Shown: in pieces, positions 6,137-56,188 of the stretch | Layout of the letters: the number at the start of each line of letters is the position of its first letter | Numbering within the stretch: the stretch's first letter is position 1 | NCBI GenBank assembly: GCA_026397405.1 | Contig: JAPLUW010000001.1 | Coordinates: forward strand, 339,977 to 403,976 | Origin: Candidatus Adlerbacteria bacterium | GTDB lineage: Bacteria > Patescibacteriota > Minisyncoccia > Phycocordibacterales > SBAW01 | Direction: 5' to 3' | Length of the DNA: 64,000 nt | The notes under the pieces: model-generated | Told to the model about the DNA's origin: nothing | Databases searched by the model: none | Seen by the model: the letters and a program-made list of their open reading frames with translations, nothing else | Program-made: the position numbers and the translations under genes

Positions 6137-7408
6137 ATGAGCGGATTTGCTGAAAAACTCACACTCCTCCTCCGCGACAAGATGTTGAGGAACCGTTTAC
6201 TGTTTGTGCTTGGCGCACTTGCAGTTTTTCGGTTGCTCGCGTCTGTTCCAATTCCTGGCATCAACGCGGCACAGCTCCAGCAATTTTTTAATAACAACCA
6301 ATTCTTTGGGCTCTTGAACCTGTTTTCAGGTGGTGGGCTTTCTAACCTTTCGCTCGTGTTGCTCGGCGTTGGGCCGTATATCACCGCGTCAATTATCTTG
6401 CAGTTGTTGACCATGATGGTCCCTGCCTTGAAGCAGCTTTACCAGGAAGAAGGCGAAGCAGGTCGCCAGCGTTTTAGCCAATACACGCGACTGCTCACGC
6501 TGCCCGTAGCCGTACTCCAGGGCATTAGCTTTTTGCTTATCTTGCAGCGCGAAGGTGTGATGCCAGGCTTAACCTCGTTCCAGTTTGCAGTAAACTTGCT
6601 CGTGATTGTTGCAGGCTCGCTATTGCTGATGTGGATAGGTGAGCTCATTTCTGAATTTGGCCTTGGTAACGGTGTGTCAGTTTTGATTTTTGCCGGCATT
6701 GTTGCGCGCCTCCCGCGTGACGCATCCCAGGCACTCTTTTCCTTTACGCCAGCACAGTTGCCGGTCTACTTGGCATTTGCCGCAGCTGCCGTTGCTGTTG
6801 TTGCAGCGGTTGTTGTTATTACGGAAGCAGAACGTCCAGTCCCGGTTACCTACGCAAAACGTGTCCGTGGTATGAAGTTTTTCGGCGGTGCGTCGACCTA
6901 CTTGCCACTGCGCCTAAACCAGGCAGGTGTTATCCCTATTATCTTCGCACTTTCTCTGCTGCTTATCCCACAGATGGTTGCAACATTCTTTGCAACTTCT
7001 ACACATGCGTGGCTCGCGACTGCATCAAACGCGGTGTTGCACGCACTCCAGAACTTGGGGCTGTACGGCACGCTCTACTTCCTGCTCGTGTTCCTCTTTA
7101 CCTATTTCTATACAGCCGTTACGTTTGACCCACACCAAATTGCAGAAAACTTGCAGAAGAACGGTGCGTTTATCCCCGGCGTTCGCCCAGGTCCGTCCAC
7201 TATGGAATATTTGGGTCGCGTTATCACACGCATTACGTTTGTTGGTGCGCTCTTCCTCGGGCTTATCGCAGTTATGCCTATCGCTATGCAGTCGGTCACT
7301 GGTATCACGACGCTCACCTTGGGCGGCACCGCACTGCTTATCGTCGTCTCTGTAATTCTCGACCTTGCGCGCCGCATTGACGCGCAGATCTCTATCCGCG
7401 AGTATTAA
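6137..7408 (+). CDS. secY: Preprotein translocase subunit SecY
   Basis: 423 aa and polytopic. SecY motifs (GIMPGL-like, ten TM helices), located after rplO. Confidence 0.9.
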   Translation: MSGFAEKLTLLLRDKMLRNRLLFVLGALAVFRLLASVPIPGINAAQLQQFFNNNQFFGLLNLFSGGGLSNLSLVLLGVGPYITASIILQLLTMMVPALKQLYQEEGEAGRQRFSQYTRLLTLPVAVLQGISFLLILQREGVMPGLTSFQFAVNLLVIVAGSLLLMWIGELISEFGLGNGVSVLIFAGIVARLPRDASQALFSFTPAQLPVYLAFAAAAVAVVAAVVVITEAERPVPVTYAKRVRGMKFFGGASTYLPLRLNQAGVIPIIFALSLLLIPQMVATFFATSTHAWLATASNAVLHALQNLGLYGTLYFLLVFLFTYFYTAVTFDPHQIAENLQKNGAFIPGVRPGPSTMEYLGRVITRITFVGALFLGLIAVMPIAMQSVTGITTLTLGGTALLIVVSVILDLARRIDAQISIREY

Positions 7409-7412
7409 GAAA

Positions 7413-7985
7413 ATGGAAGGGAAACTCATACTCGTTGTCAGTCCTGCAGGCGGCGGAAAGAGTACCTTGCTCAAATATCTGCGGGAACAGATGCCCGAGA
7501 TCGTCTTCCCAGTTTCGTGCACAACAAGGCCGATGCGTCCAGGCGAAGTAGATGGCGCGGTGTATCATTTTATTAGTGACGAAGACTTTCAGGCACGTGC
7601 TGCTCGAGATGAATTTTTGGAATGGGTATATACCGACGGCAAACGCTACGGGACCCTTATATCCGAAATTGTCCCTGCGGTAGAAGCTGGCAAGACAGTG
7701 GTGCGAGAAATTGATATAAAAGGTTTTTACAAAATCCAAGACATTTTGCCTAAAGAAAATGTTCGCACTATTTATATAGACGCCGGCACGTGGGACGACT
7801 TAGAAAAACGCATCGTTGCGCGCGCACCGATAGAGCAAACAGAACTTGCCTCGCGTCGCGCACGTTTTGAAGCTGAAGCGCCGTTTAAAGACCACGCAGA
7901 CATCGTAGTAAAAAACCCGGACGGCGGCTTGGAAGTGGCTAAACACGACTTTGTTGCGGCAGTGCAAACACTTTCTGCGAAGTAA
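7413..7985 (+). CDS. gmk: Guanylate kinase
   Basis: P-loop SPAGGGKST, and the SCTTRPMRPGEVDGAVYHFIS motif that is diagnostic for guanylate kinase. Confidence 0.8.
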   Translation: MEGKLILVVSPAGGGKSTLLKYLREQMPEIVFPVSCTTRPMRPGEVDGAVYHFISDEDFQARAARDEFLEWVYTDGKRYGTLISEIVPAVEAGKTVVREIDIKGFYKIQDILPKENVRTIYIDAGTWDDLEKRIVARAPIEQTELASRRARFEAEAPFKDHADIVVKNPDGGLEVAKHDFVAAVQTLSAK

Positions 7986-10111: not shown

Positions 10112-10284
10112 TGGCGCAGGACCCTGGAAGCAAATGTCCTTAAGTGATCTACCGGGAGTTCGCTGTCGGGCAGCACCGTGGTGTGGCTCGTAGAACACCC
10201 ACTTTACACAAAAGTAGACACTTGCTTCCCTGGTCCCACAGAGCACCCCGCGTCCGGCGCGGGATTTTCTGTAAAAAACTTTCA

Positions 10285-11667
10285 ATGGAGAATAAATCAA
10301 CCATATTTTTTTACGGTGGGGCAGGCACGGTTACGGGCTCAAATTTTTTGCTAGATGGAGGACATTCTAAAATTTTAATAGACTGCGGTTTGTTCCAAGG
10401 CGAACATTCCTTTGACGACACCAACTGGTTGCCGTTCCCCTTTAACCCTGGCGAGATTTCATATTTAATAAATACACACGCACACATCGACCACATTGGA
10501 CGTATTCCAAAGTTGGTTAAAGACGGCTACACGGGGAGGATACTTTCAACCGAAGCAACTAAAGCGCTTGCAGAGCCGATGCTCTTGGACGCCATGGAAC
10601 TTTCCCGCCGTACAGCCGAACATATTGGCAAAGAGCCGTTGTATGACGAAGTGGATATTAGACAGGCGCTTTCGCAGTGGGACACGGTGCCGTACCACAA
10701 GGTAGTGGAGCTGCCCGACGGTTTTAGTGTTGAGTTTTTCGACAGCGGGCACATTTTAGGTTCGGCACTAGCGAAATTTACCCGAGCAGGGAAGTCGGTC
10801 GTGTTTACGGGTGACTTGGGCGGAGGCAATTCGCCCCTACTTTCACTCTGCGAAATACCAGAAGGTGTCGACTATTTAGTGATGGAAAGCGTATACGGCG
10901 ACCGTGTGCAAAAAGACCGCACCAACCGCCTTGAGGATCTTGGGAAATATATTACAGACAATGCAGAGCGCGGCGGCACGTTACTTATCCCTGCATTTTC
11001 AACCGAACGCACACAGGACTTGCTGTATGAAATCCGCGCACTTATGACAGAAAAAAAAGTTCCGAGTGTGCCGGTGTACCTAGACTCGCCTCTCGCAGAG
11101 AAAATTACCGCCAGCTACCTGGCCTACCCGCAGTATTTTAGTAAGGCAATGCAACAGCGCGTGCAGGGTGGAGAGCATATTTTTGAATTCGCCGAACTGC
11201 AGTATGTGCACGACGCAGGGGAGTCTCGCGCAATTGCAGCACGCCCTGGCCCTAAAATTATTTTGGCGGGTTCGGGTATGAGCAACGGTGGCCGCGTTGT
11301 TGGCCACGAAGCCGAGATATTGCCCGACCAAAAGTCGACCGTGCTTATTGTTGGCTACCAAGCTGCGGGGAGTTTAGGTCGCAAACTCGCAGAAGGCGCC
11401 AAACAAGTGTCGATAAAAGGCCAAAAAATTACTGTCCGTGCACATGTCGACACTATGTACGGGTATTCGGCGCATATGGACAGCGAACAGCTGTTGGCAT
11501 TTGCACAACAGGTGGGTGAGGCAAACACAGGTGGCGGTTTACGGGAAGTGTTTGTCGTGATGGGCGAACCTGCAGCGGCAAGTTTTTTAGTACAGCGCCT
11601 ACGCGACTACGTAGGACTACATGCCACAGCACCCACTGCAGGTGAAAAAGCAGAAGTGGCGGTATAA
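10285..11667 (+). CDS. MBL-fold beta-CASP ribonuclease (RNase J / CPSF-like)
   Basis: HxHxDH motif (NTHAHIDHIG), beta-CASP D and H motifs, and an RMMBL-like C-terminus. Start at ATG 10285 (MENKSTIFFYGGAGTV). Confidence 0.75.
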   Translation: MENKSTIFFYGGAGTVTGSNFLLDGGHSKILIDCGLFQGEHSFDDTNWLPFPFNPGEISYLINTHAHIDHIGRIPKLVKDGYTGRILSTEATKALAEPMLLDAMELSRRTAEHIGKEPLYDEVDIRQALSQWDTVPYHKVVELPDGFSVEFFDSGHILGSALAKFTRAGKSVVFTGDLGGGNSPLLSLCEIPEGVDYLVMESVYGDRVQKDRTNRLEDLGKYITDNAERGGTLLIPAFSTERTQDLLYEIRALMTEKKVPSVPVYLDSPLAEKITASYLAYPQYFSKAMQQRVQGGEHIFEFAELQYVHDAGESRAIAARPGPKIILAGSGMSNGGRVVGHEAEILPDQKSTVLIVGYQAAGSLGRKLAEGAKQVSIKGQKITVRAHVDTMYGYSAHMDSEQLLAFAQQVGEANTGGGLREVFVVMGEPAAASFLVQRLRDYVGLHATAPTAGEKAEVAV

Positions 11668-23045: not shown

Positions 23046-23425
23046 TTGTGGAGATGGGCGGAATTGAACCGCCGTGCAATGAAGTGCTACTGGAGCTTCT
23101 ACGGAGTCTAGTTCGCTTTTTGTTTCTTTAGCGTGTCATGGGCTAAGCGAACGAAATCATGACACCCTGCAGCTCCTTAGTTTCAGCTTCAGACCGAAGC
23201 GGTTTCTGAAGTAATACCTTTGCTATATAACATCCGGTCTCAACCCGCAAAGTGGGGAAGAGTGAATGCGACTAGGCCTTGGCGTAAGCGAAAGCGAAAT
23301 CGTTCGCCGAAAAATACGGCGAGGCAACTGTTTTTGCAGTTATGTTTTCCAGATTTTTAGAGAGGTCTGGGCTCTCACTACGCGCATCCGAATAGATGGC
23401 TTCATTGTCTAGGCCTGGCATCCCC
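23046..23425 (-). ncRNA. ssrA: tmRNA (SsrA)
   Basis: The minus strand shows the tRNA-like 3' end GGCGGTTCAATTCCGCCCATCTCCAC and a 5' GGGGATGCC that pair as an acceptor stem with G3:U70. Internal tag ORF GCG AAC GAT TTC GCT TTC GCT TAC GCC AAG GCC TAG at 23272-23307. Adjacent to smpB. Confidence 0.85.
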
Positions 23426-23478: not shown

Positions 23479-23922
23479 TTATTGATTTTTCAAAGTTCTG
23501 CTGATGTCGCGCTTGGTGTCCCTTTCTTTTAAGACGGCACGCTTGTCGTACTTCTTACGGCCGCGCGCGACAGCGATTTTTACCTTCAACTTAGAGCCTT
23601 TATTATACACCGAAAGTGGCACCAATGTCAAGCCTTTCTGACCCTCAAATTCGGCCAATATTCCTAGCTCTTTTTTAGTCAACAAGAGTTTGCGGCTGCG
23701 TTCCGGGTCATAGTCGTCAGGGGTATTTGCCACTTGAAACGGCGGCACGCTCATTCCCACAATGTACGCCTCGCCTGCACGTACTACTATATGCGCACCT
23801 TCAAGCTTGCCGTGTTTCGCGCGGATACTTTTAACTTCGTGGCCGAGCAATTCCAAGCCTGCCTCAAATTCTTCGAGTAGGTCGTAGTTCATTCGCGCCT
23901 TTTTGTGTTCCAGTAAGTTCAC
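23479..23922 (-). CDS. smpB: SsrA-binding protein SmpB
   Basis: 147 aa. SmpB motifs (KARMNYDLLEEFEAGLELLGHEVKSIR...) and a basic C-terminal tail. Adjacent to ssrA. Confidence 0.85.
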   Translation of the reverse strand: MNLLEHKKARMNYDLLEEFEAGLELLGHEVKSIRAKHGKLEGAHIVVRAGEAYIVGMSVPPFQVANTPDDYDPERSRKLLLTKKELGILAEFEGQKGLTLVPLSVYNKGSKLKVKIAVARGRKKYDKRAVLKERDTKRDISRTLKNQ

Positions 23923-23978: not shown

Positions 23979-25916
23979 ATGCCTGAACAAAAGAATAAAA
24001 ACAAAAAGCGCGGGCTTAAAGTCCCCAAGATGCCACGCAGCGACTCGTTCTGGGTCAACGCAGCAACAAGCCTGTTGCTGCTCTTTTTGCTCGCAAGCGC
24101 CTACACCTATTTTGCAGCAGACAAAACAACTGCGCCTGTAGACATCGCCATTTCTGAACTTGCGAGTGACGTCCAGGGCGGCCGCGTGAGTGCAATTACT
24201 GTTGACGGCGATGACCTGCAAATTACCTACGCCGACAAGACTGAAAAAATTTCTAAAAAGGAAACTGGTACCGCACTTTCCCAAACACTCTTTAACTACG
24301 GTGTGCCAGCCGCGTCGCTCGACAAAATTTCTATCAATATCAAGCGCGAAAGTGGATGGAGTTTTTGGCTCACAACTCTCGCACCGTTTTTGGCACCACT
24401 CCTGTTGATTGCATTTTTTGTTTGGTATCTCTCACGTCAGGTTAAAGGCGCCGGCATGCAAGCGTTTTCGTTTGGGCAGTCTAAACACCGCGTCATTGAC
24501 CCTAACGACAAGTCACAAAAAGTTACGTTTAAAGATGTTGCAGGCGCTAAAGAAGCAAAGATAGAACTGCTCGAAATTGTCGATTTTTTGAAAAACCCAA
24601 AAAAGTTTTTGGACATTGGCGCACGTATCCCTAAAGGTATTTTGTTGATGGGCTCTGCCGGTACCGGCAAGACCTTGCTTGCACGTGCAGTAGCAGGGGA
24701 GGCAGGTGTGCCGTTCTACTCTATTTCAGGTTCGGAATTTGTTGAAATGTTTGTCGGCGTTGGTGCATCGCGCGTGCGCGATCTCTTCCATATGGCAAAG
24801 CATTCGGCACCGTCTATTATCTTTGTTGACGAAATTGACGCAGTCGGCCGCGTGCGCGGCACCGGTGTTGGCGGCGGCAACGACGAACGTGAACAAACAC
24901 TGAACCAAATTTTGGTTGAAATGGACGGTTTCGAGCCAAACGAAAAAGTTATCGTTATGGCAGCTACTAACCGCCCCGACGTGCTCGACCCAGCACTGGT
25001 GCGCCCGGGCCGCTTTGACCGCCGCGTTGTTATCGAACTTCCGGACCGCCAAGACCGAAACGAAATTTTGCATATCCATGCCCGCAAAAAACCACTCGCC
25101 GAAGATGTAAACCTTTCAGTCATTGCAGAGCGTACACCGGGCTTTTCTGGTGCCGACTTAGCAAACCTGATGAACGAAGGTGCGATTTTGGCTGCACGTG
25201 AAGCGCGCAAAACAGTTGCGCAATTCGACCTTATCCGTTCAATTGAGAAAGTGATGCTTGGCCCCGAGCGCAAGTCGCACGTGATGAACGCCAAAGAAAA
25301 AGAAATAACCGCCTACCACGAAGCGGGCCACGCACTTGTTGCATCACTCTTGCCGCATGCCGACCCAGTGCACAAAATCTCTATCATCTCCCGCGGCCGC
25401 GCTGCAGGGTATACGTTGAAGTTGCCGTTTGAAGACAAGCGCATGCAAAGCAAAAAAGAATTTTTGGACGACATCGCGATGTCGCTCGGCGGCTACATTG
25501 CCGAAAAAGAAGTGTTTAGCGACGTGACAACCGGGCCGTCCAACGACCTCCAGGTTTCAAGTGCGCTTGCGCGCGACATGGTTACTAAGTTTGGTATGTC
25601 AGAGAAAATCGGCACCGTGGCACTTGAAGGTAGCGACGGCCGCGCATTGTTTGGCTCGGGCGTATCTGGTAAAGAATATTCTGAAAAAGTTTCTGGCGAT
25701 ATCGACTCTGAAGTAAAGCGCATTATGGACGAAGCATACGCAAAAGCGCTGAACATAATTACCGAACACCGAAAAGTTTTGAACGCTATTGCCGGCCGCC
25801 TTGTCGAAGTAGAAACTCTCGAGCGCGAAGAGTTTGAAGGTATTTTGGTCGCGCACGGCATCCCTCTCAAAAAGAAACAAGAAATTACTACCGAGCCCGT
25901 TACCGTTAATTTTTAA
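23979..25916 (+). CDS. ftsH: ATP-dependent zinc metalloprotease FtsH
   Basis: N-terminal TMs, AAA+ Walker [12 protein letters not shown], and the HEAGHA zinc-binding motif. Confidence 0.9.
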
Positions 25917-26140: not shown

Positions 26141-26418
26141 GAAGAACTCTCCTTGGTGGTTGTGTATTGGCAGCGTAGCACCATTGAAGAAAAAAGAAAA
26201 ACGCCGTCCCTGAGGGGCGGCGCTTACGTTTCAAGCGGTAACTTTGCCATCGAGGTACATCAGAATATCGACGAAGACCTGTCCGCCAAACTCGCACGAT
26301 AGCACGGAATTATTTTTGTGGTCACAAATAGTTTCTCGCCGACGCTCGAAACTTTCGCGACCCCGGCTCGCGGTTTTGCAAGTGCAAAACATCGCTGTGC
26401 CTCACACAAAAGCAGAAA

Positions 26419-26437
26419 ACCTCCCGTAGGGGAGGTG
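26419..26437. terminator. Bidirectional hairpin CCTCCC-GTA-GGGAGG with T/A tracts, downstream of the minus-strand tRNA
   Basis: Inverted repeat seen directly. Confidence 0.4.
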
Positions 26438-26450
26438 TTTCTGTCTTTTG

Positions 26451-26524
26451 TGTGCCTGCCTGGACTCGAACCAGGGACCGCCGAGGTATAAGCTCGGAGC
26501 TCTAACCAACTGAGCTACAGGCAC
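26451..26524 (-). tRNA. tRNA with anticodon UAU (tRNA-Ile, AUA decoder)
   Basis: Manual cloverleaf: acceptor GTGCCTG/CAGGCAC, D-arm GCTC...GAGC, anticodon stem CCGAG/CTCGG with loop CTTATAC (anticodon TAT), T-arm CCTGG-TTCGAGT-CCAGG. Confidence 0.7.
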
Positions 26525-26556: not shown

Positions 26557-28794
26557 CTACTCAAAGTGTAGGGTCTGGGCTCGTGCAAAGAGTGCATGCT
26601 GCAGAAGTGGGTGTCTCAGTAAATTTTCGTCCTGCTCCACAAGGGCCAGCGCTTCGGTCCGAGCGGCTTCAACAAGTTTTAGATTCTTTAGTGCTTCCAT
26701 GCCGATGTCAGAGATGCCCCACTGTTTGCGGCCCGAAAGTTCACCGGGCCCGCGCTGCAGCAAGTCTTGTTCGGCAAGTTCAAAACCATTTTTTGCAGTG
26801 GCCAATGCCTTGAGCCGCGCAAGTGTATGTTCGCCGCGGGACTCTGGGCAGACAAAACAATAGGCCTGGTGGTTGCTGCGCACCACGCGCCCGCGTAGTT
26901 GGTGGAGCTGTGCCAAACCAAAGCGCTCGGCGCCCTCGATAAATATCATTGTGGCATTTGGCACGTTGACGCCCACTTCGACCACAGACGTTGCGACCAA
27001 AATGTCGATTTCGTGCGCAGCAAACTTTTGCATCGTTTCGTCTTTTTCCTTCGGCGTCATTTTGCTGTGCAAAATCGCAATCTCGTAGTTTTGGAAGACA
27101 TCTTTCTTAAGTCGTTTTGCTTCTGCGGTGACCGACTTTGCCATCAATGCAAAAGCTTTGTCGGGGTCGGGTTCGTCGATGCGGGGGCAGATAACATATG
27201 CTTGCCGGCCTTCTGCTAATTGCTCGTGGATTTTTGTATAGGCTTTTGGGCGCCCACTGGGGCTTACAATTTCTGTAATAATCCGCTTGCGGCCTGCCGG
27301 CATTTCGTCGAGCAGTGTTAAGTCTAAGTCTCCATATATAGTAAGCGCCAACGTGCGGGGAATGGGGGTAGCTGTCATCGACAACAGATGGGGGAGCCGC
27401 TTTTCTTTAGTCGCAAGTTTTTGTCGTTGTGCGGTACCAAAGCGATGTTGCTCGTCTATCACAACGAGTGCCAAGTGTTTAAACTGCACCGACTTTTGAA
27501 TAAGTGCGTGCGTGCCAATGACAACAGGGATCTCGCCCGCGGCTACCCACTTAAGCAGCTGCGTACGAGAGATAGTGGTCGACTTGCCGCGCCCTATTTT
27601 TGATGGAAATTTATAACATCCCGAGCCCGTAATAAGCCCAATGTTAATAGGGAACGTTTCAAAATATTTTATAAACGACTCAAAATGCTGCTTTGCTAAA
27701 ATTTCGGTCGGGGCCATGTACGCAACCTGCAGCGTGCCAAATTTCTGGTTCTCTGGGCGCGTACGAACAGTCGCATAGGCGGCAGTTGCTGCAACGGCAG
27801 TTTTGCCCGAACCTACATCGCCTTCAAGTAAGCGCGACATCGGGTGGCCGCTGCGCATGTCATGCAAAATTGCCTCAATTGCTTTTTCTTGTGCACCCGT
27901 TGCGGTAAAGGGGAATGTGCCTATAAAGTCGTCGACCGCTTGTTTAGGAGCGTCGACGGCAAAACTTTTTTCGTGTGATTGTTTTTTACGCTCGAGCCCA
28001 CGTTCGAGTTGGATCATAAATACTTCTTCAAACGCAAAACGTTTACGCGCAGCGTCGGCGTCTTTTAATTTTTCAGGTATGTGCATCCACACAAGCGCGC
28101 TGCCAAGCGTTGGTAAGTTGTAGCGCTTTAACATGTCGGGAGGCAGCGGGTCTTCGGTCTGTTCGATAATTCCTGTTGCAAGTACTTTTTGTATCGCATG
28201 GCGGAACCAAAGTGACGTAACTCCGCGGCTTTCGGGGTATTGGGCGAACAGGCCTTCGGCAACAGCTGCCGATTCTGGGTACACAATTTCCTTGCTAGGA
28301 AATTGCTCAGTCCTCGGGCCGTCGCCCTGTGGAGCCCCTCCATCGGCACTATTGCCTCCGGTCTGTACGAATAACCCCTCCTCCGTTGCAGAAATTTTTT
28401 CAAGCTGTGGGTTTGCTAAGTAGAGTTTGCCGGGGGAGCCGGTAACTTTGCCGGTTGCTTTTACACGTGTGCCGTCGGCATACATTTTGGCAATGTAGGG
28501 TTGGTTAAACCACATCAACTTTACGCGGCCGCCTTGGTCGCGCAGGTAGCCGTCGGAAATGGGGATACGCCGCTTCCACGACTTTTTTGTTGTGAGTTTT
28601 TCCAAGATCCCTACAACCGTAACTTCCTGGCCGACCTGCAACTCGCCCGTACTCGCTTCGCTCCCGGCCTGTTCGTAACGAAAGGGGAAGTGGTACAGCA
28701 GGTCGCGTAGTGTTTTTATGCCTAGTTTCCCCAAGGCAGTTTTTTGAATGTTTGTTAGCCGGAAGTGCTCGGAAATGGGTTCGCGTAGATCCAT
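26557..28794 (-). CDS. recG: ATP-dependent DNA helicase RecG
   Basis: Wedge domain, helicase motif I GDVGSGKT, DEQH box (VVIDEQHRFG) and the C-terminal helicase domain. Start chosen at ATG 28794 (MDLREPISEHF...) to avoid the long upstream extension. Confidence 0.85.
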   Translation of the reverse strand: MDLREPISEHFRLTNIQKTALGKLGIKTLRDLLYHFPFRYEQAGSEASTGELQVGQEVTVVGILEKLTTKKSWKRRIPISDGYLRDQGGRVKLMWFNQPYIAKMYADGTRVKATGKVTGSPGKLYLANPQLEKISATEEGLFVQTGGNSADGGAPQGDGPRTEQFPSKEIVYPESAAVAEGLFAQYPESRGVTSLWFRHAIQKVLATGIIEQTEDPLPPDMLKRYNLPTLGSALVWMHIPEKLKDADAARKRFAFEEVFMIQLERGLERKKQSHEKSFAVDAPKQAVDDFIGTFPFTATGAQEKAIEAILHDMRSGHPMSRLLEGDVGSGKTAVAATAAYATVRTRPENQKFGTLQVAYMAPTEILAKQHFESFIKYFETFPINIGLITGSGCYKFPSKIGRGKSTTISRTQLLKWVAAGEIPVVIGTHALIQKSVQFKHLALVVIDEQHRFGTAQRQKLATKEKRLPHLLSMTATPIPRTLALTIYGDLDLTLLDEMPAGRKRIITEIVSPSGRPKAYTKIHEQLAEGRQAYVICPRIDEPDPDKAFALMAKSVTAEAKRLKKDVFQNYEIAILHSKMTPKEKDETMQKFAAHEIDILVATSVVEVGVNVPNATMIFIEGAERFGLAQLHQLRGRVVRSNHQAYCFVCPESRGEHTLARLKALATAKNGFELAEQDLLQRGPGELSGRKQWGISDIGMEALKNLKLVEAARTEALALVEQDENLLRHPLLQHALFARAQTLHFE

Positions 28795-28832
28795 ACATCT
28801 AGTATATAAGCCCTGTGATATACTCGCGAGAT

Positions 28833-29975
28833 ATGAAGAAAAACGACACTGCAGCACGTGCCATTGCATTACACAAAAAACTGGGTGGGAAAATTCGCAT
28901 TACGCCGGCCGTAGCTATTAAAAGCCGGGCCGACATGTCGCTTGTGTACACGCCAGGGGTTGCGGCGGTTTCTATGCTTGTTGCAAAAAACAACAAACTC
29001 GCGCGCGACTACACTATTAAAGGAAAGATGATAGCCGTAATCTCCGACGGCTCGGCAGTGCTTGGGCTCGGTAATATTGGCGCACTCGGGGCGCTTCCAG
29101 TAATGGAAGGGAAGGCCGCGTTGTTTAAAGCGTTTGCAAATGTCGACGCATTCCCAATTGTTTTGGATACACAAAACGTCGACGAAATAGTAAAAACTAT
29201 TGTAAACATTGCACCTGCATTTGGCGGTATTAACCTAGAAGACTTTAAAGCACCCGAATGTTTTGAAATTGAAGACCGCGTCAAAGCCGCGCTCGACATC
29301 CCCGTGATGCACGACGACCAGCATGGCACTGCAATTGCGGTACTCGCAGCACTTATGAATGCATCAAAAGTTGTTGGCAAAAAATTTAATTCTCTCCGCG
29401 TCGTTGTTGCAGGGGCGGGCGCTGCAGGTACTGCAGTTACCAAATTGCTTTTGAAGGCAGGCGTTACAGACGTTATTATGCTCGACCGCAAAGGCACACT
29501 TTCTAAGGACCGCACTGACCTTTCTGGTCACAAAAAAGAACTTGCTGGAATGACAAACCCGCGGAATATAAACGGCACACTACAAGACGCTCTCAAAGAT
29601 GCCGACGTTGTGCTTGGCGTGTCAGGCCCCGGTTTAATGACTGTAAAAGATGTGCAGTTGATGGCAAAAAAAGCGATTGTATTTGCGATGGCAAACCCGA
29701 CGCCGGAAATTATGCCCGAAGACGCAAAAAAGGGCGGTGCGGCAGTTATAGGTACCGGCCGCAGCGACTATCCGAACCAGATAAACAATTCACTCGTCTT
29801 CCCAGGCGTCTTCCGCGGCGCACTCGACAACCGTGTGACAAAAATCACCGACGACATGAAGTTGAAAGCGGCCAAAAACTTGGCAGCATTGGTTAAAAAA
29901 CCAACCGCCGACAAAATTGTCCCTGGGCCGTTTGATAAAGGAGTAGTGCAAGCAGTTGCGAAAGCAATAAAGTAA
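28833..29975 (+). CDS. NAD(P)-dependent malic enzyme (short MaeB-type)
   Basis: ISDGSAVLGLGNIG and VVAGAGAAG dinucleotide motifs, and a FANPTPEI-like motif (AMANPTPEI). Confidence 0.75.
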   Translation: MKKNDTAARAIALHKKLGGKIRITPAVAIKSRADMSLVYTPGVAAVSMLVAKNNKLARDYTIKGKMIAVISDGSAVLGLGNIGALGALPVMEGKAALFKAFANVDAFPIVLDTQNVDEIVKTIVNIAPAFGGINLEDFKAPECFEIEDRVKAALDIPVMHDDQHGTAIAVLAALMNASKVVGKKFNSLRVVVAGAGAAGTAVTKLLLKAGVTDVIMLDRKGTLSKDRTDLSGHKKELAGMTNPRNINGTLQDALKDADVVLGVSGPGLMTVKDVQLMAKKAIVFAMANPTPEIMPEDAKKGGAAVIGTGRSDYPNQINNSLVFPGVFRGALDNRVTKITDDMKLKAAKNLAALVKKPTADKIVPGPFDKGVVQAVAKAIK

Positions 29976-52808: not shown

Positions 52809-52879
52809 TACTACATATAGCGGGGTGGAGGAGTAGTACCTCACAAGGCTCATAACCTTGGGACCCGGGTGCAAATCCC
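52809..52879 (+). tRNA. tRNA-Met (anticodon CAU), initiator-like
   Basis: Anticodon loop CTCATAA, unpaired 1:72 (A:A), A11:U24 in the D-stem, and a TGCAAAT T-loop. All of these are initiator hallmarks. Confidence 0.75.
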
Positions 52880-52884
52880 GGCCC

Positions 52885-52920
52885 CGCAACAAGATACAAA
52901 ACAGCCCCGCTCCTGCGGGA
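52885..52920 (+). terminator. Hairpin CAGCCCCGC-TCCT-GCGGGACTG followed by TTTTGT
   Basis: Near-perfect inverted repeat after the initiator tRNA. Confidence 0.45.
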
Positions 52921-52964: not shown

Positions 52965-53038
52965 GTGTCTGTACGTCGGTGTAGCTCAGGTAGTTAGAGC
53001 ATGGCACTCATAAAGCCAAGGTCGAAGGTGCAAGTCCT
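52965..53038 (+). tRNA. tRNA with CAU anticodon (elongator Met or Ile2/LAU)
   Basis: Acceptor GTCGGTG/CATCGAC, D-arm GCTC-AGGTAGTTAG-AGC, anticodon loop CTCATAA, T-arm GAAGG-TGCAAGT-CCTTC. Confidence 0.75.
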
Positions 53039-53120
53039 TCCATCGACACAAGTGAAAAGGTGATTGGAAAAAGGCGCATTCTGCGCTAGAATCGCTTTGT
53101 TCGCTTAAGGTTCCTCATTT

Positions 53121-53228: not shown

Positions 53229-54512
53229 ATGAGCCCTCTCGCACGTTTACCGTATTCTGTTTCAAAATGGGCTGACCCATTTATTTTGTGCGCAACCACC
53301 TTGGTTGCATACTGGGCTTTTTCGCGTGCGCCCATTTCTAACCTGGTACTTGCGGCAGCTATTGTTGGGGCTGCCTCCAGTGTCATGACGCTGCTCGAAT
53401 GGGTACGGTTGCCAGTAGTGGCACAGAGGCAACCGCTATCAAAAATATTTTCACATTCTGTAACAACCTGGTTAGGTACGCTTGCAGGTCTCGCCCTCAC
53501 CTGTGCTTTGTGGGGAACGTTGGCAATATATCGCGACGCCTACTACGCGCCTTTTTTCGACATACTTCCACTCATTCTTATTGCGACACCCGTATTGAGC
53601 GCGTTGTTTATTCTTGCTGCAGATAGTTTACTGGGGCCATCAGTGCAGGGCGGCTATCAGCTCGGGCTCGTGTTGCTTGGACGTACGCGCGAGGTCAACT
53701 GGCACCTTGTGCGCGACAACCTGCTGATGTGGTTGCTGCGAGGGTTTTTCCTGCCGATAAATTTTTGCGAACTGGTGCGCGCTATGGGAGTATTTCGCGG
53801 ACACGAGCTTTCCTTGCTACAAGGGTCGTGGGTTGCGGGGGAGTATTACGCGCTGATTATGATATATGCCCTCATTATTGCTGCGGTAACCCCCGGCTAC
53901 TTGTTTGGTGCACGGCTTATTGGTACCGAAACAAAGGCAATAAGTTCTACCTGGTTTGCGTGGGTCGTCACACTCGCGTGCTACGCACCGTTTGAAGTTG
54001 TTGTGTTTAAAAATTGGTTTAACTACAACCCCGTGGCTGCAAGTCCTGTGTGGTTCCAGCCATGGGTGCAGCATCTGCAACATCTTCCCGCGGTGCTTGA
54101 AACGGTAGGCGGGGCTATTATACTTTTTGCACTTATACACTTGTGGGCCGAAGCGCAGTTTGGACTACGTTCGTCCAACATAAGCAACCGTGGAATTATT
54201 ACCACTGGTGCATACCGATTTTGTAAACACCCGGTGTATGCAACTAAATGCGCTGTGTGGTTTTTACTATGGATGCCGTTTGTCTCGGGCACTACAGCCT
54301 TCGACAGTCTGCGGCTGACATTTTTATTTGCCTGTGTGTGCGGAATATATATACTCCGCGCGCTTGCCGAAGAAAAGTTGTTGAGTGCCGACCCAGACTA
54401 TGTTTCCTATGCACTGTGGATGGATGAACACGGCACATTCAAATTCCTTGGTTCTCTTTTTCCGCCGCTCCGGTTTGCCTGGCGCTTGGCATATTGGCAA
54501 AAATTGAGGTAA
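53229..54512 (+). CDS. Polytopic membrane protein with a C-terminal ICMT/phospholipid-methyltransferase-like domain
   Basis: About 10 TM helices. The C-terminal motif GIITTGAYRFCKHPVYA resembles the isoprenylcysteine/phospholipid methyltransferase family (RHPxY). Confidence 0.55.
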   Translation: MSPLARLPYSVSKWADPFILCATTLVAYWAFSRAPISNLVLAAAIVGAASSVMTLLEWVRLPVVAQRQPLSKIFSHSVTTWLGTLAGLALTCALWGTLAIYRDAYYAPFFDILPLILIATPVLSALFILAADSLLGPSVQGGYQLGLVLLGRTREVNWHLVRDNLLMWLLRGFFLPINFCELVRAMGVFRGHELSLLQGSWVAGEYYALIMIYALIIAAVTPGYLFGARLIGTETKAISSTWFAWVVTLACYAPFEVVVFKNWFNYNPVAASPVWFQPWVQHLQHLPAVLETVGGAIILFALIHLWAEAQFGLRSSNISNRGIITTGAYRFCKHPVYATKCAVWFLLWMPFVSGTTAFDSLRLTFLFACVCGIYILRALAEEKLLSADPDYVSYALWMDEHGTFKFLGSLFPPLRFAWRLAYWQKLR

Positions 54513-55312: not shown

Positions 55313-56188
55313 ATGCAGTCCAAGGAAGATATTCAAAAACGAATTGTAGAAATTGAAGCGGCAATGGAGCTCTCTGATTTTTGGAGCGTACCTGCGAAGG
55401 CTCAGAGCTTGATAAAAGAACTACAAGACTTAAAAGAAGCAGCTGAGGGTGGCGGCAAGTATGACAAAGGTAATGCGATTATTATGATCGTTGCAGGAGC
55501 GGGTGGTGACGATGCCGAAGACTTCGCCCACATGCTTTTGGAAATGTACAGAAAGTATTCTGAAAAGCGCGGATGGGGCATGCGCGCGCTGCACGCAAAT
55601 GAAAACGACCACGGTGGCTACCGTAATGTCACCGTGGAAGTCGAGGGTAAAAATGCGTACGGTACTCTACAAAAAGAATATGGCGTGCACCGTTTGGTGC
55701 GTATCTCGCCCTTTAATGCATCTAAAAAACGTCAGACCTCATTTGTACTTGTGGAAGTGTTGCCGGTGATAGAAAAAATTGGGAGTTTTGAAATACCTGA
55801 AAGCGAGCTCGAAATTACGTTTGCACGTTCAAGCGGGCCGGGCGGGCAAAACGTCAACAAACGCGAAACTGCCGTCCGCGTGGTGCATGTCGCAACGGGT
55901 ATCTCGGCACATGCCGACGGCGAACGCACGCAAGGTGCCAACAAGGAAAAAGCGCTGGCGATTGTTAAAGCAAAACTCTTTCACCTACTGGAAGCTCAGC
56001 GCAAGGAAACAGTTGCCGAACTTTCCACCAACATGAGCAAAATAGAATGGGGGAGCCAAATTCGTTCGTATGTGTTGCACCCATACAAACTTGTCAAAGA
56101 CCACCGCACCGGGGTGGAAGCCCACGATGCCGAAAAAGTGCTAGACGGTAACATCGAGCCGTTTTTAGAAGTGGAAAAGAGTTTATAG
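55313..56188 (+). CDS. prfB: Peptide chain release factor 2, minimal form without the programmed-frameshift leader
   Basis: SPF tripeptide motif (RISPFNASKKRQTSF) and GGQ motif (SGPGGQNVNKRE). 291 aa. There are only 67 nt to the divergent upstream gene, so no space exists for the N-terminal frameshift exon. Confidence 0.8.
   Translation: MQSKEDIQKRIVEIEAAMELSDFWSVPAKAQSLIKELQDLKEAAEGGGKYDKGNAIIMIVAGAGGDDAEDFAHMLLEMYRKYSEKRGWGMRALHANENDHGGYRNVTVEVEGKNAYGTLQKEYGVHRLVRISPFNASKKRQTSFVLVEVLPVIEKIGSFEIPESELEITFARSSGPGGQNVNKRETAVRVVHVATGISAHADGERTQGANKEKALAIVKAKLFHLLEAQRKETVAELSTNMSKIEWGSQIRSYVLHPYKLVKDHRTGVEAHDAEKVLDGNIEPFLEVEKSL

Follow-up and report, generated by a model that had tools for sequence, protein, structure and literature searches.

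How is the isoleucine codon AUA read in a bacterium that carries a genomic tRNA gene with the anticodon UAU, when TilS and the lysidine that it makes are regarded as nearly universal and essential in bacteria, with only a handful of natural exceptions so far? The question is raised by one gene in a stretch of 64,000 nucleotides (the whole stretch is called the window below) from a Candidatus Adlerbacteria genome (contig JAPLUW010000001.1, positions 339,977 to 403,976), where an earlier note, made from the letters of the DNA, had proposed a tRNA with a TAT anticodon and a clean cloverleaf. The comparisons given below argue with good confidence that this gene encodes a functional AUA-decoding minor tRNA-Ile(UAU), which is probably the main AUA decoder of the lineage; that it would be the sole decoder, with both TilS and tRNA-Ile2(CAU) lost, is assigned a probability of roughly 0.55-0.6. 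The gene is placed as follows.

26451..26524, minus strand: tRNA-Ile(UAU) gene (ARAGORN, Rfam), with G1 at 26524, A73 at 26451 and the loop CTTATAC

A minus-strand tRNA-Ile(tat), one of nine RNA genes in the window, was called by ARAGORN at 26450-26524, and the Rfam model RF00005 matched 26524-26451 on the same strand from model position 1 to 71 of 71 (70.5 bits, E 2.3e-13; gathering threshold 29), with zero non-canonical pairs flagged. The position, the anticodon and the canonical cloverleaf of the earlier note were thus borne out by two concordant programs, and the strand, which had been left unstated, is minus. The tRNA is 74 nt long (GUGCCUGUAGCUCAGUUGGUUAGAGCUCCGAGCUUAUACCUCGGCGGUCCCUGGUUCGAGUCCAGGCAGGCACA) and has an acceptor stem of 7 bp (GUGCCUG/CAGGCAC), a D stem of 4 bp, and anticodon and T stems of 5 bp each. 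In the ARAGORN call, which had been suggested as a check, the anticodon loop C32-U33-U34-A35-U36-A37-C38 stands in the standard seven-nucleotide register with U34-A35-U36 as the anticodon. The D arm holds G18 and G19, the T-loop is UUCGAGU, the discriminator is A73, and the gene is directly followed on its 3' side by CAA, so that CCA is not encoded.

The body of the molecule points to isoleucine. The tRNA-Ile genes are told from those of Met and fMet by G3 or A3 with C70 or T70, and C4-G69 is very frequent in tRNA-Ile(CAT) (Silva et al., PMC1635315). The UAU tRNA contains G3-C70, C4-G69 and A73, which are typical bacterial tRNA-Ile marks, the two pairs being present also in the E. coli tRNA-Ile(GAU). 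The closest E. coli tRNAs are of the Ile(CAU) types, with 56-59 of 74 identities versus 51 for Met and Ile(GAU), the nearest of all being a prophage-type tRNA-Ile(CAU). This closeness to tRNA-Ile2(CAU)-type genes suggests, as the most likely origin, a change of C34 to U in such a gene, a route that has been proposed by Taniguchi et al. (PMC3575796).

The AUA frequency, another check named in the earlier note, was found to be high: the codon makes up 15.3 per 1000 codons and 24% of the Ile codons in 31 genes of the window, on a par with AUC, and is seldom used in the window's ribosomal protein and secY genes. Over 81 recG genes of the lineage, AUA amounts to 18.5 per 1000 codons and 29% of the Ile codons (from 0 to 56% per gene), and on the AUA-usage scale of PMC12514573 the group belongs to the high-AUA ones. 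In the recG orthologues, the amino-acid profile of the ATA columns (I 0.64, V 0.14, L 0.10, M 0.02) is like that of ATT/ATC and unlike that of ATG, while the partner codons in these columns, counted with ATA itself left out to avoid circularity, were ATT/ATC in 54%, Val codons in 18%, Leu codons in 13% and ATG in 2.5% of cases. The agreement of the ATA substitution profile with ATT/ATC, and not with ATG, shows that AUA means isoleucine in this lineage; a common codon read in this way calls for an efficient AUA decoder.

The conservation of the gene was followed through its upstream neighbour.

26557..28869, minus strand: recG, ATP-dependent DNA helicase (NCBIfam RecG models, E 1e-213), with its stop codon 32 nt upstream of the tRNA

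The comparison set consisted of 80 metagenomic recG loci, encoding RecG proteins 55-88% identical to that of the window, which were scanned for tRNAs. A tRNA-Ile(TAT) was found downstream of recG in 58/80 loci, at a median distance of 480 nt; where the downstream flank reaches 1 kb or more, it is present in 55 of 58 loci, and where it reaches 3.5 kb or more, in 34 of 35. A tRNA with the CAT anticodon was seen at this position in 0/80 of the related recG loci. Together with the window and locus L001, the occurrences number 60 and comprise 48 distinct sequences, all with TAT. In 48 of these 58 relatives, recG and the tRNA are encoded on opposite strands, so that the tRNA is an independent transcription unit there, the co-orientation seen in the window being the minority arrangement. 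An identical tRNA is carried by the Candidatus Adlerbacteria metagenome-assembled genome ELA416 on a 73-kb contig, whose DNA is 86-91% and whose RecG is 88% identical to that of the window, and close relatives of RecG, with 71-82% identity, bear the labels Adlerbacteria, Paceibacterota, Parcubacteria, Minisyncoccia or Patescibacteria group. As a separate observation, the recG of locus L059 has zero ATA codons, and no tRNA-Ile(TAT) occurs within the 1 kb available downstream of it.

Covariation was computed on an alignment of 39 orthologous tRNAs, in which two D-stem pairs were misregistered by an insertion column of one sequence, so that the D-stem figures were disregarded. Pairing reaches 99.6-100% in the acceptor, anticodon and T stems, with both-sided changes in 17 of 21 pairs. 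The covariation score was 0.71, whereas shuffles scored 0.17 and slid controls no more than 0.16. Across the same alignment the anticodon-loop columns C33-A38 are invariant (one U38 in place of C38 occurs among the 48 distinct sequences), as is A73, while G3-C70 is kept in 38/39 and C4-G69 in 35/39. Stems that vary but stay paired around fixed loop and identity positions are, judged by this alignment, the mark of purifying selection on the anticodon and the identity elements.

The CAU tRNAs of the window bear on the decoding of the AUN box as well. By ARAGORN, two of them stand in tandem with a tRNA-Asp, 26 kb from the UAU tRNA.

52819..52890, plus strand: initiator tRNA-fMet(CAU) (ARAGORN and the discriminators of PMC1635315)
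52975..53049, plus strand: most likely elongator tRNA-Met(CAU) (ARAGORN, acceptor-stem discriminators, orthologues)

The initiator is recognised by a 1-72 mismatch, A11:U24, G12:C23 and R29-G30-G31/Y39-C40-Y41 (PMC1635315), and the first tRNA, with an A1.A72 mismatch, A11:U24, G12:C23 and A29-G30-G31/C39-C40-U41, is by these marks the initiator. For the elongator tRNA-Met, the discriminators, which are statistical and not absolute, are a paired 1-72, Y11:R24 and C3-G70, without C4-G69/C5-G68 (PMC1635315); the E. coli ileX also has C3-G70. The acceptor stem of the second tRNA (GUCGGUG/CAUCGAC) is fully paired, with G1-C72, C3-G70, G4-C69 and G5.U68, and the molecule has C11:G24, A73 and an A31.A39 mismatch, while C4-G69/C5-G68, typical of tRNA-Ile2, are absent. 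At 3-70 and 4-69 it agrees with the initiator and shows the reverse of the pairs fixed in the tRNA-Ile(UAU) of the clade, and its orthologues in loci L089 and L091 retain C3-G70/G4-C69 and the 31.39 mismatch. Classification of this tRNA by BLAST or by global identity was dropped as non-discriminating, the global identity to E. coli tRNAs being 49-53/74 for all types, and the acceptor-stem discriminators and orthologues were used instead; on these, it is most likely an elongator tRNA-Met. Accordingly, the proposal of the earlier note that a CAU tRNA at 52965 would be an elongator Met fits 52975-53049, but two CAU tRNAs are present and the first is the initiator.

Both Met tRNAs have features of their own. 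The initiator has A1.A72 in place of the usual bacterial C1.A72 and an anticodon stem with AGG/CCU rather than GGG/CCC, and its sequence recurs unchanged (100% identity) in a relative with proteins of only ~61-80% identity. Both carry G at T-loop position 55 (UGCAAAU, UGCAAGU) in place of the near-universal U or pseudouridine, and both D loops have A-G where G18-G19 is expected, while the other seven tRNAs of the window are canonical; the pattern resembles a joint replacement of G18:U55 by A18:G55 in the elbow tertiary pair. It was noted also at L091 9770-9842 and L089 7196-7267; among the elongator Met tRNAs of relatives, that of L091 also has G55 and no GG, and that of L089 at 7346-7422 is canonical. 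Right after the tRNA-fMet/Met/Asp cluster lies a gene (53229-54512) for a 427-aa membrane protein with weak similarity to ICMT/DUF1295 (isoprenylcysteine methyltransferase-like), for which 72 homologues were found, mostly from the Candidate Phyla Radiation (CPR), with a few labelled Proteobacteria.

The search for TilS covered the 64-kb window, ~17 kb of additional flanking sequence taken from assemblies of this organism, the 80 recG loci and three further loci from relatives. A scan for the PP-loop motif gave no match in the window or in the related loci, no TilS appeared in the NCBIfam/Pfam annotation of 49 open reading frames, and phmmer with the E. coli TilS gave no match in the window, the flanks and the related loci (about 860-875 kb from few neighbourhoods). 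In the most sensitive test, a hidden Markov model of 120 TilS sequences found nothing in 875 kb except the positive control (E 4e-110). A mosaic-consensus TilS query returned 6767 matches, and none of the 120 listed was labelled CPR; the one candidate on a long contig, P0095, was rejected because it belongs to an organism outside the CPR, its neighbouring genes including those of MreBCD and cytochrome c. The gene order next to the tRNA bears on the same question.

23979-25916, plus strand: ftsH
23479-23922, minus strand: smpB
23046-23425, minus strand: ssrA, the gene of the transfer-messenger RNA (tmRNA)

In many Gram-positive bacteria tilS stands just upstream of hpt-ftsH. The corresponding position upstream of ftsH is occupied here by smpB-ssrA. 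The tmRNA gene (tag AKTVASPYFSANDFAFAYAKA) adjoins smpB; the two share the minus strand and diverge from ftsH. Among the relatives the end of the tag, FAYAKA/YALA, varies.

The sole decoding of AUA by the UAU tRNA has to be weighed against a redundant arrangement, in which TilS and a tRNA-Ile2(CAU) would be encoded elsewhere in the genome and AUA would be read by both the lysidine-bearing tRNA and tRNA-Ile(UAU). Such redundancy is considered possible but rather doubtful. The inspected portion is only ~80 kb of the genome, tilS is found in about 98% of annotated bacterial genomes (PMC12514573), and tilS has been documented together with a UAU tRNA in other bacteria (PMC3575796); on the other side, no TilS was met in ~860 kb of clade sequence, drawn from few neighbourhoods, the two CAU tRNAs observed are assigned to fMet and Met, and an anticodon that is invariant across a divergence as deep as RecG identities of 55% would, by extension from PMC3575796, fit tilS-free lineages and not sporadic cases. 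The other explanations concern the gene itself. A single C-to-T change suffices to make position 34 of a tRNA-Ile2(CAU) or tRNA-Met(CAU) read as T, and the source is a metagenome-assembled genome, but a sequencing error or a very recent strain mutation has a negligible chance, given 60 independent occurrences from many samples and assemblies without any CAT and an identical tRNA in a different species. That the gene would be an accessory of a phage or island, or a decaying pseudogene with no core role, is hinted at by its prophage-type E. coli relative and is just as improbable: it is flanked by the core genes ftsH, recG and smpB-ssrA, no phage or integrase genes were found near it in the NCBIfam and Pfam annotation of the open reading frames of the window, and it is syntenic in 58 loci, with compensatory evolution and a perfect cloverleaf. 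Covarying stems around a fixed anticodon rule out assembly error, recent mutation and pseudogene alike. A different identity, with the tRNA charged by another amino acid (e.g., Met, as in some mitochondria) and AUA reassigned, could be read from the unusual C38 in the loop, and code changes are known in the CPR, namely UGA in Gracilibacteria and Absconditabacteria; nevertheless, this too is very improbable, since the ATA columns of the 81 recG orthologues behave as ATT/ATC and the G3-C70/C4-G69/A73 set is that of bacterial tRNA-Ile, opposite to C3-G70/G4-C69 in the Met tRNAs of the same genome.

Several points weigh against the favoured reading as a whole. TilS and a third CAU tRNA are excluded only for the ~80 kb inspected here and for the corresponding region of relatives, the source contig alone being 495,613 bp long. 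The assignment of 52975-53049 to Met rests on few acceptor-stem positions, and the best E. coli BLAST matches of this tRNA are marginally tRNA-Ile (47 vs 44 bits). In a system of this type the synthetase would be expected to suit U34, by Arg or Lys at the position of the E. coli Trp905 or by being of eukaryote type. The gene ileS occurs neither in the window nor in any locus fetched, so that the isoleucyl-tRNA synthetase (IleRS) of the lineage was not seen; the C38 and G29-C41 of the UAU tRNA differ from the E. coli IleRS identity elements, among which A38 and C29-G41 reportedly were counted by Nureki et al. in 1994, and therefore the rules of IleRS recognition must differ here. Finally, charging with isoleucine, the state of U34 and the discrimination between AUA and AUG are predictions. 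The TilS-independent strategy put forward in the earlier note is thus favoured by the negative searches but keeps its conditional standing, because these cover few neighbourhoods and some bacteria carry both tilS and a UAU tRNA. Its extension to a whole Adlerbacteria-like branch of Parcubacteria (Paceibacteria/Minisyncoccia, CPR), lacking TilS and tRNA-Ile2(CAU) and reading AUA solely by the UAU tRNA, is held to be slightly better than an even bet.

Two further elements may bear on the expression of the gene.

26409..26436, minus strand: intrinsic-terminator-like hairpin, ACCTCCCCTACGGGAGGT then TTTCTGCTTT (consensus scan and sequence reading)
26683..26711, minus strand: weak sigma-70-like promoter match CTGACA-17-AAGAAT (consensus scan, 9/12), within the 3' end of recG

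The hairpin with its T-tract, which is a pattern match only, begins 14 nt beyond the 3' end of tRNA-Ile(UAU) and would terminate its transcript, while the promoter-like match may be a promoter of its own for the tRNA. In the decoding route that is proposed, the tRNA would be transcribed either alone or, in this genome, together with recG, up to the hairpin, then trimmed and supplied with CCA post-transcriptionally by an enzyme; A37 would probably be modified to N6-threonylcarbamoyladenosine (t6A), as in other tRNAs that read ANN codons, and IleRS would charge the molecule. AUA would then be decoded by a direct U34-A pair. The evident danger of such a tRNA is that AUG is read as well, by U-G wobble; AUA would nevertheless be read far better than AUG, as has been shown by experiment for the M. 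mobile tRNA and the B. subtilis suppressor tRNA discussed below, since an unmodified U34 in this context would bind AUG weakly and tRNA-Met would compete for AUG. It may be speculated that the invariant C32 and C38 help to reject AUG in this clade.

Genomic tRNA-Ile(UAU) is rare in described bacteria, having been counted in nine species without tilS (PMC3575796) and in 17 genomes (PMC8450103); the cases comprise M. mobile, haemoplasmas, some Bifidobacterium and Neorickettsia and a few tilS-retaining species (PMC3575796, PMC8450103), as well as a deep-sea Spiroplasma (PMC5861454), and 371 unassigned metagenomic tRNA-Ile(UAU) sequences have been described. The rarity claimed in the earlier note is therefore right for described bacteria, but its restriction to a few reduced genomes falls short here, given that a broad CPR clade has kept the gene. 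The nearest parallel is Mycoplasma mobile (PMC3575796, PMC1635315), which likewise uses a genomic UAU for AUA in a small genome, with a tRNA-Ile2(CAU)-like body in which C34 became U, and has no tilS, which in the present case was not seen within the searched sequence. The M. mobile tRNA, in which U34 is unmodified, binds AUA on the M. mobile ribosome and does not bind AUG there, and the IleRS of this species accepts U34 through a Trp-to-Arg change (Arg865, at the position of the E. coli Trp905) (PMC3575796). There, the absence of tilS, the unmodified U34, Arg865 and the rejection of AUG were shown experimentally, whereas the present system is described from its sequence; unlike that single-species case, it is found at ~50% G+C (the composition of the window), across a whole CPR clade and with an invariant C38.

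The 'tRNA-Ile3(UAU)' of Bifidobacterium and Neorickettsia in tRNAscan-SE 2.0 (PMC8450103) is similar in being a lineage-level UAU tRNA in place of tRNA-Ile2(CAU), although these bacteria have a eukaryote-type IleRS (PMC3575796) and the phylum here is a different one (Patescibacteria/CPR). Bacteria with both tilS and tRNA-Ile(UAU), such as Lactobacillus casei, L. plantarum, Cyanothece PCC 7424 and Ferrimonas balearica (PMC3575796), also have the UAU gene, but they are sporadic at the species or strain level, in contrast to the gene described here, which is syntenic across RecG identities of 55-88%. In B. subtilis, a single anticodon change gave a viable AUA decoder when tilS was deleted (Fabret 2011; Kohrer 2014, PMC3919564): the suppressor tRNA-Ile1(UAU) has an unmodified U34, binds AUA much more strongly than AUG and leads to misincorporation of about 1 in 1000 (PMC3919564). 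It is, however, a laboratory mutant of tRNA-Ile1(GAU), while the natural gene here is nearer to the Ile(CAU) types (59 vs 51 of 74). With the canonical tRNA-Ile2(CAU)/TilS system the UAU tRNA shares the task of reading AUA as isoleucine and the acceptor marks G3/A3-C70/U70 and C4-G69; it differs in the TAT anticodon, kept in all 60 occurrences, with which lysidine would be unneeded, and in the lack of TilS from the searched sequence.

Literature searches gave nothing linking CPR/Patescibacteria with tRNA-Ile(UAU) or with tilS loss. Thus, the kind of molecule, a bacterial tRNA-Ile(UAU), is already known, and the novelty lies in the host group and in the scale, i.e., a syntenic, anticodon-invariant gene across a deep high-AUA CPR clade. 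If TilS is truly absent, lysidine-free AUA decoding would be normal for a sizeable part of bacterial diversity and not the curiosity of a few parasites, and no other natural bacterial group that lives without lysidine would come close to this clade in size or in AUA usage. A lineage-specific rejection of AUG would then be implied, whether through loop context, U34 modification or an unusual CPR ribosome, and the invariant CUUAUAC loop offers a concrete object for testing how U34 reads A but not G. Annotation and completeness tools that expect tilS or a tRNA-Ile2(CAU) would misjudge such genomes.

Elsewhere the window holds core bacterial genes, including a ribosomal protein/secY cluster, type IV pilus genes, ligA, gatA, pyrG and ftsEX. 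A beta-CASP/metallo-beta-lactamase ribonuclease (10144-11667) adjoins the ribosomal protein-secY-adk-map cluster, its best models being the archaeal aCPSF1 and 'Cas14 MBL-CASP' (E 6e-121, below cut-off). The homologue of release factor 2 (RF2) at 55313-56188 is a protein of just 291 aa whose match to the prfB model starts at position 111, ~110 N-terminal residues being missing; a programmed frameshift of the usual +1 kind was rejected as the explanation, the reading frame upstream being on the minus strand, and the short form is shared with relatives (276-292 aa).

A further unusual tRNA was met in distant relatives, outside the window. In bacteria, a serine anticodon beginning with A is an extreme rarity, three having been counted in the tRNADB-CE paper (PMC4013482). 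A class II tRNA-Ser(ACT), with A34 and the loop UUACUAA, occurs in L060 (3683-3772), L065 (2414-2503) and L076 (250-339); it stands divergently beside a tRNA-Ser(GCT), has a clean cloverleaf and is conserved on these three independent contigs.

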